A stretch of DNA of 64,000 nucleotides from Eledone cirrhosa (lineage: Eukaryota): positions 34,348,001-34,412,000 of the forward strand of contig OZ024751.1 in NCBI GenBank assembly GCA_964016885.1, written 5' to 3'. Positions 2,516-54,820 of this stretch are shown in pieces (position 1 is the stretch's first letter; each line of letters opens with the position of its first letter). The notes beneath the pieces are model-generated. The model did not search any database and was not told where the DNA came from. It worked only from the letters and a program-made list of their open reading frames with translations. Position numbers and translations under genes: made by a program.

Positions 2516-2710
2516 ATAGGAACGAGTAGGACCCCGACGGCTGAGCTCAAGCCGTTTCGACGGCTAATTCTAGTCCAGAATTAGCCGTCGAAACGGCTTG
2601 AGCTCAGCCGTCGGGGTCCTACTCGTTCCTATTACCCACTCTACTACTCTAAGTATTGAGTACTTTGGTGCGTTATGGTCCACTTGGTTCCTTACCACAT
2701 TTCCTTCGTT
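2516..2710 (+). mobile_element. Family A hairpin-plus-tail insert (PLE pLTR-derived) in (TA)n
   Basis: Perfect 56-bp arms 2516-2571 and 2577-2632, loop AGTCC, 78-bp tail to 2710, (TA)n on both sides; contains GAAACGGCT-TGAGCTC-AGCCGTC (hammerhead stem III plus GUC). Confidence 0.8.
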
Positions 2711-5700
2711 ATATATATATATATATATATATATATATATATATATATATATATATATATATATATATATATATATATATATAAGATTGATGTTTGGCTA
2801 GTGATATATTTTCACCTGTTTGAATATACATACACAGAAAGTTATAAACACATACTTACAAATATATATATATATGTATATACAATATATTAATAAATGG
2901 AAACTATATTTATAAAACCATATTTATTTCAGGGCAACCAAGGCAAATTATGGTGCGCTTTCGTCAGATAAAATACAGATTTGTTATATAAAAAAATATT
3001 GACATACCCGGAAAAAAAGACAACCTTAACGGTTGGAGCTTCCTGGATAGCTGTATATCAGTTATAAAAATGTTTAAGCTTGTTGAATCCCAACAAATTA
3101 AATATAACCTCTGCATATATATATATATATATATATATATATATATATATATATATATATATATATATATATATATATATATATATATATATATATATAT
3201 ATATATATATATATATATATAGAGAGAGAGAGAGAGAGAGAGAGAGAGAGATAGGGAGAGAGAGAGAGAGAAATATATAAAAGGACACAAACAGACACTT
3301 ACAAATATATACAAAAGCACATACAAACAGGAAAGAATATAAACACACACTTATACTGACAAAACTATATAAACACACACAGACACACGAATACACACAC
3401 GAATATACACACGAATTCACACACAAGTACAAACATATGGAGAGTCACAAACACATATAGGCTAACACGTACACACCAATACATTGACACATCCCACACG
3501 TATATAGACTTAAACACAGCAACAACATTTTAGCTACAACGCCTCTCTTAAAGCTATTATGCTCTATTTGTCTATGAAAACACGAAGAAACGTACCAAAT
3601 TGCCATAAAAGTATATTGTGCGGTAGAACGACCTCCTATAGACAGACACAAACATATCAATATGGCGGTTATTAGGTAAAGATTCATGGCTACCATTTTG
3701 TATCATCAACTAACAATACTCTTTCAAACGAATCATATATTTCATGTTGCTCAACATTTATTCAAATTCACATGACAAAAATATACAAAGTTAAGAAGCT
3801 GAGTCTGATAAAGCAGAGAGAGAAGAGGAGAGAGAGAGAGTGGAGGAGCGAGAGAGGAAGAGTGAGGGAGAGTGTGAGAGTGAGTGAGAGAAAGGGAGTG
3901 TGAGAGAGGGAGTGAGTTATTTTGGTGACATTTTCTTTATCATACTTTATTTCAACAAACCACACTTTATATGTGTATATGTATGTTACTCTCTCTCTCT
4001 CTCTCTTTCTCTCTCTCTCTCTCTCTCTATATATATATATATATATATATATATATATATATATATATATAAATGTGAGTATATATATATATATATATAA
4101 TGTGTGTGAGTATATATATATGTTATGTTTTTCTTAATTCAGTCTTTTCGGTTTTCTTCTTTATCTCCAGTCACGTGATTCCTCAACTTACGTCCTTATC
4201 GATAACTTCTCCTTGTTTTTCATTGTTTTCCCGCTGTGTTATCGTTGTCGTCGCCGTCGTCTTGTTCATTACCATCATCATTATCATTATTTTAGGCATC
4301 TCCATCATAATCCTTATCGTTGTCATCAACTTCACAACCATGATGATGATTGTCATCGTTATTGTCTTCATTTTCTTCTTCTTTCTCAGCACCTTCATCA
4401 ATTTCAACATCATCATCGTCACCATCATCTTTATCGTCAGTAACTTCACAAACACCGCCGCCACCCTCCCCACTACCACCCACCACCCACCACAACCACC
4501 ATCACCATCATCGTCTATATCATCATTGTATCATCATTTTTGTACGTAGAAGGCCAATTCTTGTTATCGTTATCATGTTGGCAACTTGTAGAAAAACTAC
4601 CAATTCTCATTACTTCTGTAACTAATATCTTTATATTCTAAATTGACTGATAAAGAAATTCCACAGGAATTCACCGAAAACCAACTTTGAAATTTGAAAT
4701 TTATTTTTTCTTGGACATGTTTTTACTGCCTTTGGTTGCAAGGCATTGCTATTTTTTAGTGAAATACAGATAGTGTGTCTTTGTGTTTATGTAAAGTCTA
4801 TATGTGGGTGCATGTGTTCATATAAGTTCTATATGTGGGTATGTGTTTGCATGTAAGGTCTAAGTGTATATGTAAGATCTATGTGTGTGTATGTGTGTGT
4901 AAGTGCATATTAGTGTTTGTGCATGTATGTGTGCTGTGGAAATGATAAAAATAACCAGAAAACAAAAGCGTAGTTCAAATTTTGAACCAGTTCTCAGACT
5001 TTTTTCTAGATAAGCCAGGCCTCAGTTTGGTGTTTCTGATTGGTGAAGGTCTCTTCTGCATCATATATTATTGTTGGTCGACCAGGGGCATGCCTCTGGC
5101 TTTCTGAATTAGCATCCGGAATGTGGAAGGTTTCCGTGTTTGTCAGTGATGTGGGATTTCATGCTCTTGGTACAAGAGTATCTTACCTTGATTAAGTACC
5201 TGGATATGTCACTGTAGTAACTTATTATATATATACATAAACCACAAACATACACACGTATATATGTATGTGTGTGTGTGTGTGTATACGTATAAGATAA
5301 ATTAGGATCGTCTATTATATATATATTTTTTTAATTTTCCTGCTCTACGCCGAATTCCTAACATATAGTTCCTTTGTTGATAACAATATGTATCAATTTA
5401 TACATCTCTGACTGCATATGACTCTCTCTCTCTCTCTCTCTCTCTCTCTCTCTCTCTCTCTCTCTCTCTCTGCGTATGAATATATGTATACTTTTGTGTA
5501 TGTGTGTGTATCTGTTAAATACACAGACACATTATCTTATATTTATTGTAAAAGCTTAATTTCCCCAGTAATTAATTACATTCATAAAGATTCTACCACA
5601 TTATCTCGCTGTAAAGACTGCGACAACAATACCACCACCACCAATGACATCACCACCAACAACAACATCAATAGTACCACCACCACCACCAACGACAACA

Positions 5701-6433
5701 ACACCAACAACACAAAGAACCACAGGTTTAGTTACACGAGCAACAAAAACAACATCAACAGCGACCAAATCTAGAGTGTCAACAACTGTAACAATAACAA
5801 CTAATATTGTGTCGGCAACAACAGTAACATGCTTAACAATATCGATATTAACAAGATCGTATTAAAGCTAATAGAACTTTTCTGATATGACATATAACAA
5901 TAGATATTGCATCAATTATCTACATTCCAGTATATTCTGTCCCCGAGAAAATATTTGTCAGAGTTATATGCTACCGGAAGTAGTCATAGTGCTGCCATCT
6001 TTGAAACATGAGATGAATTATAAAAGTGTTGTTGAATGGTATATTAACAGATAGCTAGATAGATGCTGTACCTAGACACACACATATATATATATATATA
6101 TATACACACACACATATATATATGTGTGTGTCTGTGTGTGCATATATGCTTATATATATATACACACATTTATAATATATTATTTTCTTTATTTTGTGTT
6201 ATAAAACCATAATAGCGTTCATTACCACTTGATGTTCCGTGTAAAAGGTTATATATGCTAAGCCATATCACTGCAAGGAAAAACAATTAGTTACCACCAC
6301 ATCACGTGTAATGTTTGATAAGATACTCTTTTAACGACCTCAGTCTTGCAGAGAAATCCACATCATTCACACCCGAAACACATTTCGTTATGATTTTTTT
6401 ACATACTATTTAAGAATAATTTCTACTTAACAG

Positions 6434-6695
6434 AAGTTCTATTTCTTCTTGGGGAACCACGAGCACCATGAACCTAGTATTAAAACAGGGTGTATCGTTA
6501 AACAAAAGACACCCAACTGTAGCAAAGATACGCCTAAAACAGCACCAAATGGTACCCAATCAGACACTAAGGTATTCAAATCCGCAGAAATGCCCTCAAA
6601 ATTATCTAAAACACTTGAAGTCACCCACGAAGAAATTTCCCCCAAGTCCCTCAAAGATGCTTAAAAGCACCGAAAAGAAATGTTCTCTGCGTTAA
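6434..6695 (+). CDS. Weak candidate terminal exon, product unknown
   Basis: Preceded by acceptor-like TTTCTACTTAACAG (AG at 6432-6433); non-repetitive; two plus frames are open, to stops at 6664 and 6695. No recognisable domain. Confidence 0.2.
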
Positions 6696-54484: not shown

Positions 54485-54603
54485 TCCTACGGCCATATCA
54501 CGCTGAAAACACCGGTTCTCGTCAGTTCACCGAAGTTAAGCAACGTCGAGCCTAGTTAGTACTTAGACGGGTGACCGCTTGGGAACCCTAGGTGGCGTAA
54601 GCG
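54485..54603 (+). rRNA. 5S rRNA: 5S rRNA gene copy, probably a pseudogene
   Basis: Full-length match to metazoan 5S (CTACGGCCATATCACGCTGAAAACACCGGTTCTCGTC...CACCGAAGTTAAGCAACG...GTTAGTACTT...GGGTGACCGCTTGGGAA...GTAAGC). Helix I has three mismatches, box C reads TAGACGGG instead of TGGATGGG, and only TTT follows. Confidence 0.9.
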
Positions 54604-54706
54604 TTTAATATATATATATATATATATATATATATATATATATATATATATATATATATATATATATATATATATATATATATATATATATATATATATA
54701 TATATA

Positions 54707-54820
54707 TTGAGCTCAGCTGTCGGGGTCTTGATCATTTTCCTATTACCCACTCTACTACCCTAAATATTGAGTACTGTGGTGCGTTATGGTCCATCTGGTT
54801 CCTTACCATACTTCCTTCTT
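54707..54820 (+). mobile_element. Family A 5'-truncated tailed arm between two (TA)n tracts
   Basis: TTGAGCTCAGCTGTCGGGGTC...TTCCTATTACCCACTCTACTACCC...GGTTCCTTACCA matches 2598-2710. Confidence 0.8.

Follow-up and report, generated by a model that had tools for sequence, protein, structure and literature searches.

The inverted pseudo-long terminal repeat (pLTR), the one-sided tail and the two reverse transcriptase (RT) start sites of Penelope-like elements (PLEs) have already been published, and cleavage of both target strands has been published for another PLE. These publications call open the origin of the inverted pLTR, the presence of a tail at one end and hammerhead cutting in vivo; evidence for the last is described as lacking in PMC4209133 (Cervera and de la Pena 2014), the source of the circle model. 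Here we analyze a 64,000-nucleotide stretch of the Eledone cirrhosa genome (assembly GCA_964016885.1, contig OZ024751.1, positions 34,348,001 to 34,412,000; hereafter the window) holding small hairpin-shaped repeats set in (TA)n tracts. The hairpins are ~200 bases in size, lie at more than 12,000 places in the genome and are, judged by sequence motifs, the pLTR plus tail of a Hydra-clade PLE. Each is built from a short arm ending at element position +61 and a tailed arm ending at +139, placed head-to-head. They probably arise by twin priming at these two sites on one capped RNA, with run-off at its 5′ end, copying of the cap and end joining. Twin run-off of this kind would explain the head-to-head inverted insertions of PLEs.

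Element positions are counted from +1, the A of AGTCCAGAA at window position 2572, and genome-wide counts were taken on the 3.0-Gb assembly that holds the window; every sample consists of the first matches listed on the largest contigs (contig 1) and was not drawn at random. Exact tail 30-mers number 22,606 (control 0), and a single pattern for hairpin junctions returns ~12,400 places (12,368 on one strand and 12,515 on the other; 5 and 12 in the control), far above chance. Part of the 30 best matches extend upstream beyond the hairpin arm, and full-length copies encoding RT and GIY-YIG domains are located elsewhere in the genome, although all eight open reading frames (ORFs) inspected are broken. 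Translations of two such copies (L049 and L046) contain YRDD and VIY..YIG in a single ORF joined to the repeat, and 695 homologs score at E<=1e-20. Pfam and PDB searches gave no useful match, and the motifs were read by eye. Specifically, L049 carries RWR and DKT and its homologs RW(K/R) and DKT; the linker reads CNCPDGSIC (CxCX5C), CNLC and CKH provide the CxxC and CxH around E and N, and CCHH is absent as judged by eye. By these motifs the element would fall in the Hydra clade as defined in PMC8557442. The Neptune clade, which needs a CX2-5CxxC linker and CCHH in the endonuclease (EN), was rejected given the CxCX5C linker. The family further shows the marks of EN+ PLEs: an RT/GIY-YIG ORF, partial-tandem pLTRs in direct or inverted order, and a tail at one end.

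In full-length copies the tail continues into the 5′ untranslated region (5′UTR), with the ATG at +232. Exact tail-to-5′UTR junctions number only 68 against the 22,606 tails, and a TA run directly follows 88 of 90 tails. Every main subfamily also includes long ORF-side copies. An earlier reading of this DNA from its letters alone (the sequence-only reading) had described the hairpins as a candidate insertion system of their own and had asked for a link to an RT/GIY-YIG ORF. The link is found in the long copies. The hairpins do not form a separate system but make up most of what an ordinary, autonomous Hydra-clade PLE produces; they are dead by-products of a known element class.

The 3′ ends of the arms are far from random genome-wide, falling at +61 in 18,639 cases (short arms) and at +139 in 18,963 (tailed arms). 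Pairing was scored on the first 98 and 100 listed places, taking divergent pairs within 5 kb (n=61). Fifty-eight of the 61 pairs are mixed, joining one short and one tailed arm, whereas two are tail-tail and one is short-short (p=3e-14 versus free choice). A parser run on 90 tail-selected loci found 62 adjacent partners, 61 of them short. The subfamily marker agrees between the two arms in 57 of 61 pairs, versus 36% expected; the variants that the sequence-only reading took to be private to the two arms of one copy are instead subfamily markers present in thousands of copies. The RNA sequence at each of the two 3′ ends is TAT, positioned at the start of the TA tract, which makes a 3-nucleotide microhomology possible; the +61 end coincides with the outer end of an extended hammerhead stem I and the base of a tail stem-loop (L198 and L192, 1405-1530). 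One rare tail-tail copy, L018, lies at the center of an inverted duplication of its own flanks, and tail-tail pairs may thus be later rearrangements. Three contig assemblies of one sample, compared on L059, have their best-supported loose ends before ~+12, behind +62 and behind +136. These agree with the genome, but we give them no weight, as contigs do not allow parts to be ranked and the sample may itself be the source of the assembly.

Long copies follow the same rule. Twelve of 20 long loci have an inverted partner, all 12 are mixed with both arms passing -30, and three copies of more than unit length are mixed as well. A sample of 100 arms that reach -7 includes 24 divergent pairs versus one convergent pair, and no partner of a micro tailed arm extends beyond -13. 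Long arms pair with long arms, for which reason independent strand transfer on each arm was rejected; the template class is fixed per insertion, which favors one RNA. Across 11 long pairs, 131 of 5,940 sites (2.2%) differ within an insertion, versus 4.0% between insertions. Seamless over-unit copies need a read-through RNA, a circle or a coupled jump. An obligatory hammerhead circle is unsupported as their source, since the C3.A8-core subfamily is equally rich in long arms (6 of 78, versus 14 of 120 for the others; p=0.47). One locus (L251, 1301-2022) holds a short arm followed by a -3 to +254 unit head-to-tail twice and a final -3 to +139; we propose that this tandem came from repeated RT jumps or from a small circle of the mRNA front.

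The base preceding +1 carries a footprint of its own. Genome-wide, position -1 is T in 13,086 cases, G in 3,338, C in 3,229 and A in 674. G is absent at -1 from the first 100 of the 5,634 arms that are templated to -7. In the AGTA subfamily, G is found in 22 of 30 loci, stands unambiguously on at least six short and at least ten tailed arms, and occurs on both arms of three insertions, and the sequence upstream of it is unrelated between copies. Of 30 G loci examined, 15 (six on short arms) carry a G that the partner arm does not account for. A G preceding -4 is uncommon (214, versus 1,692 A or T), yet clean in four arms. An untemplated G on short and tailed arms alike is expected from cap copying, to which PMC3287187 credits the untemplated 5′ G of L1 and SVA, and PMC2377424 places the transcription start and promoter of Penelope within the pLTR. 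A G at the short arm's own +1 means that this arm was copied from RNA, and the tailed arm necessarily too, which argues against the fold-back and antisense self-priming of PMC3846280. We infer a capped start at +1. The A at +1 is initiator-like; a resemblance of AGT to an initiator had been noted in the sequence-only reading.

Parsing of the 5′ ends of 90 tail-selected copies places 51 tailed-arm starts at -7 to +8, 30 at +9 to +94, one at -16 and eight beyond -50, leaving 1 of 90 ends in -8 to -49. The fixed 5′ end claimed earlier is therefore a wall near +1 blurred by trimming, not a single base. Neither arm is favored in reaching further (tail 23, short 27, equal 11). Junctions vary widely: 53 of 61 are distinct, with 29 joined through microhomology, 20 containing filler and 12 blunt, and the recurring types occur in different subfamilies. 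The identical junctions by which a unit-copied family had been proposed to be recognizable are not seen. The modal junction (15 of 49) has a symmetric 21-nucleotide register, in which the cDNA ends overlap over +1 to +6. Fillers at L238/L239, L216/L217, L002 and L015 are repeated short pieces of the arm ends, and are similar to the templated insertions made in end-joining repair, or to the outcome of several RT jumps. Junctions at L116, L178 and L139 contain at least 15 added A (or T) once the arm passes +1, which suggests RT slippage or terminal addition. A quasi-palindromic A/T run at -14 to -8 is hypervariable among young copies (L014, L036, L042, L047, L048, L140) and in some insertions is not the same on the two arms.

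The long arms contain a type I hammerhead whose core is U3-A8, a variant already known in Cercyon PLEs (PMC4209133), and whose position 7 varies across subfamilies. Minimum free energy folding gives a three-way junction in two of three long arms, from two subfamilies, with the cut predicted after +41. Its stem III, which has a palindromic loop, measures 5-6 bp, so the ribozyme is not the minimal form described earlier. Because +1 falls within loop II, an RNA starting at +1 lacks the 5′ half of the ribozyme. Besides the wall at +1, a minor one coincides exactly with the predicted cut, +42, and is rarer where the ribozyme core is mismatched. Hairpins with both arms ending within 6 nucleotides of +42 number 302. 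A wider pattern was scored on its first 50 junctions. In 13 of these, both arms end at +42 and a single A or T separates them (CCCC-W-GGGG), and 15 are blunt or, alternatively, annealed through CG at +41; two arms ending at +43 or +44 around one extra base do not occur among the 50. The subfamily with mostly C3.A8 cores supplies 5 of 48 +42 junctions, versus 39% of arms (p=1e-5), a baseline whose pattern leaves out one minor subfamily. At L255 and L257 the sequence jumps from +42 into the downstream 5′UTR. A 5′ pLTR copy may come to be cut at +42 by way of upstream read-through or of a 3′ end that supplies the missing half.

These footprints can be assembled into the mechanism that we consider probable, namely twin priming on one capped RNA. 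Transcription would start at +1 (TTAGT/TCAGT), with a minor start at -4. As this start lies 231 nucleotides before the ATG, both priming sites are near the mRNA front. A protein dimer would nick both target strands, and the nicked strands would prime through the 3-nucleotide TAT present at both sites. The trailing RT would displace the leading cDNA, the cap would be copied as C, and the two cDNA 3′ ends would be trimmed and then joined bluntly, through microhomology or with templated filler. Hammerhead-cleaved RNAs would yield the +42 mini hairpins, and long copies would need a template in which upstream sequence is continuous with both sites, through read-through, circle formation or a coupled jump onto the 3′ pLTR. 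If downstream RNA is needed, as in the Anolis Poseidon element PAc, only the mRNA front would be competent, which would explain why ~9/10 of the copies are tiny. The twin priming at two TAT microhomology sites and the capped-start run-off proposed by the sequence-only reading thus gain support from the 58/61 rule and from the G on either arm.

Several observations weigh against this mechanism. The marker is discordant in 4 of 61 pairs, and in 8 of 11 long pairs the arms disagree at one site or more that is polymorphic elsewhere; both leave room for two RNAs. The TAT is assignable to neither target nor RNA, and priming through it is uncertain because the PAc start sites are described as non-homologous to the target in PMC11167929. 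The start site, the cap and the cleavage are read from DNA footprints; 13 of the 30 G loci could owe their G to the partner arm and two more are ambiguous, solo arms abutting TA show six G versus one A in 100 (p=0.125), and T at -1 is also frequent, at about 39 of 100 by hand count. Fifteen of 90 arms reach -1 to -4, which requires minor starts or A addition, although the -4 bin is inflated because five parser rows (L094, L107, L119, L128 and L134) over-extend across the near-palindrome. Rfam at E<=5 gave no hammerhead match, and the z-scores of the fold are weak (-0.5 to -1.8). An extra C at about 6 of 50 +42 junctions means that C addition is not exclusive to the cap. To these is added the non-random sampling.

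The discordances also bear on a variant in which an asymmetric dimer holds two RNAs and priming takes place at +61 on one of them and at +139 on its partner. The palindromic loop of stem III could pair two RNAs, dimeric PLE hammerheads are described in PMC4209133, the two arms cover the same RNA stretch, and several arm differences besides the four marker discordances fall at polymorphic sites. However, differences within an insertion stay below those between insertions (2.2% versus 4.0%), the marker agrees in 57 of 61 pairs, and the template class (capped, +42 or long) is common to both arms, which independent RNAs would not ensure; we regard this variant as unlikely. A fold-back, in which one cDNA (or antisense RNA) snaps back and the second arm copies the first, would also make the arms agree in subfamily and would suit the microhomology at 29 of 61 junctions; ATTC and GAAT flank +1 and could snap back, and such self-priming was proposed in PMC3846280. 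It gives no reason for the fixed +61 end, nor for loop-free palindromes with a symmetric 21-nucleotide register in 15 of 49 junctions. Moreover, short arms carry their own extra G at +1 even where the tailed arm stops near +56 and offers no template (L163), three insertions have G on both arms, and G marks the 5′ end of the sense RNA. Fold-back is thus largely refuted and retains very little probability.

The wall at +1 might alternatively mark RT stalling in the stem II loop of the hammerhead on a long RNA rather than an RNA 5′ end, given that +1 lies inside loop II of the modeled ribozyme. Stalling does not account for an untemplated G immediately before an initiator-like A, only 1 of 90 ends falls in -8 to -49, and the arms are both long or both short, unlike independent stalling, so that we judge this explanation very improbable. 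Least credible is a non-autonomous family, a miniature inverted-repeat transposable element (MITE) or one resembling a short interspersed nuclear element (SINE), that copies itself as a unit. The very high copy number, the recurrence of some junction types and a Penelope promoter in the pLTR (PMC2377424), from which solo arms might be transcribed, speak for it. Against it, 53 of 61 junctions are distinct and the recurring ones span subfamilies, long ORF-side copies exist in every main subfamily, and the sequence upstream of the G is unrelated. A solo arm transcribed from +1 may still serve as a secondary template. A MITE proper was rejected because the hairpins have unequal ends and an inconstant interior, and a non-LTR retrozyme was rejected for head-to-head hairpins that start inside loop II.

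Beyond twin priming on one capped RNA, a more general and tentative idea, doubtful as it stands, is that PLEs insert by a dedicated two-site, two-strand mechanism lacking ordinary second-strand synthesis, in which the state of the RNA 5′ end decides the product. An asymmetric dimer would use two sites close to the front of the mRNA that encodes it, priming one of the cut strands at each. Capped linear RNA would give dead hairpins, hammerhead-cut RNA would give +42 stubs, and full-length over-unit copies would come only from RNA whose 3′ pLTR is brought to the front. This could occur through a ribozyme assembled from both transcript ends and circularization, or through an LTR-like coupled jump over the +1 to +41 redundancy. 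Such a mechanism would explain the tail, the inverted pLTR and pLTR regeneration together.

Within the window, all eight copies noted at the outset were found, in or abutting TA tracts. AGT(C/A)CAGAA occurs exactly five times, at 2572, 11626, 14756 and 29751 on the forward strand and at 28838 on the reverse strand, matching the five shared starts reported before. The two arm ends stood as well: arms end at ...TTCCTA(T) (+61) or 78 nucleotides beyond (+139). Four copies are hairpins (2516, 11563, 28777 and 29648), and the copies at 11076 and 39112 each consist of one arm and belong to an older subfamily, A2 (74-77% identity). No ORF of the element lies in the window. The copies comprise the following features:

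2459-2518, no strand: (TA)n tract left of the type copy.
2516-2571, reverse strand: short arm, element +61 to +6, inverted.
2572-2710, forward strand: tailed arm, +1 to +139.
2572 (+1) and 2612/2613 (+41/+42): inferred capped start and predicted hammerhead cut of the type copy.
2633-2710, forward strand: tail of the type copy, which is 5′UTR sequence in full-length copies.
2710-2783, no strand: (TA)n tract right of the type copy.
11077-11201, reverse strand: single tailed arm of the older subfamily A2, partnerless.
11562-11622, reverse strand: short arm, +61 to about +3.
11626-11764, forward strand: tailed arm from +1, AGTACAGAA variant.
14732-14816, forward strand: a TA run and a 7-nucleotide inverted stub, then a short arm from +1 to +61 (14756-14816).
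28777-28838, reverse strand: short arm +61 to +1, then a short reiterated piece.
28848-28985, forward strand: tailed arm, +2 to +139.
29658-29751, reverse strand: tailed arm trimmed to +28, joined by microhomology.
29751-29811, forward strand: short arm, +1 to +61.
39112-39207, reverse strand: single tail fragment of the older subfamily A2.
54707-54821, forward strand: solo tailed arm, +27 to +139, with TA tracts on both sides.

TA tracts also seem to act as seeds of fold-back duplications: positions 64-319 form a 97-bp inverted duplication of unique flank centered on a TA run (161-222), and comparable duplications lie around 36279-36350 and at 38335-38537. The window further contains a second dispersed family of 197 bp in opposite orientations (29264-29460 and 56075-56271, 96% identical), another repeat pair (29851-29954 and 37321-37421) and two homogeneous minisatellites, at 31419-33031 (32 bp, 50 copies) and 41576-42890 (37 bp, 36 copies).

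The pairing rule, the cap footprint and the hammerhead wall were not found in the open-access literature, a body that leaves aside older reviews, Repbase notes and figure supplements. As natural products of the insertion reaction, the arms of this family number in the tens of thousands and preserve footprints at single-base resolution: short arms pair strictly with tailed ones, a cap-like G can stand on either arm, and ends at the predicted ribozyme cut track the state of the catalytic core. Specific, cheap predictions follow from these, both for rapid amplification of cDNA ends (RACE) and for the in vitro PLE system already established.

The closest described relatives are the Hydra-clade elements of PMC8557442 (Craig 2021), which share RW(K/R), DKT, the CxCX5C linker, CxxC/CxH around the conserved E and N, a C-terminal GIY-YIG, a hammerhead, (TA)n targets, partial tandems, an inverted 5′ copy and a one-sided tail. 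The unit here measures about 3.55 kb, including a 1.2-kb 3′UTR, versus generally <3 kb, and the tail 78 nucleotides versus 30-40; tens of thousands of arms, ~9/10 of them tiny, further set the E. cirrhosa family apart from the clade as described there. A 7-residue and an 11-base motif of the family were not found in the supplement of that paper.

Like PAc (Frangieh 2024, PMC11167929), the element would use two internal RT starts that bound the tail and lie downstream of the hammerhead, with both strands of an AT-rich target cut and extended; a dimer is predicted for PAc. In that study, the two PAc starts are not linked to the two arms of inverted insertions and show no difference between strands, whereas the sites here pair one-to-one. 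Ends at the hammerhead cut were also absent from the PAc reads, and homology at the start sites is not reported; the E. cirrhosa family has a +42 class and carries TAT at both sites. Searches of its available supplements gave no matches.

Non-LTR retrozymes (bioRxiv 10.64898/2026.07.22.740005) are likewise pLTR-derived, non-coding and equipped with a type I hammerhead. They are described as head-to-tail tandems of whole ribozymes, in contrast to these head-to-head hairpins that lack the 5′ half of the ribozyme; only the short tandem at L251 is retrozyme-like in that point. The Penelope palindromes of Adineta vaga (Arkhipova 2013, PMC3846280) resemble the hairpins in their head-to-head inverted pLTRs, one-arm tail, initiator-like pLTR motif and microhomology junctions. 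They were attributed to self-priming, possibly on an antisense template, whereas the footprints here favor two cDNAs of a capped sense RNA. Untemplated G also occurs at complete 5′ ends of L1 (PMC3287187).

During L1 twin priming, as proposed for the present element, two target strands prime on one RNA; the L1 arms copy different RNA stretches from variable internal sites. Unlike in L1, both priming sites of the E. cirrhosa element are fixed and its arms overlap.

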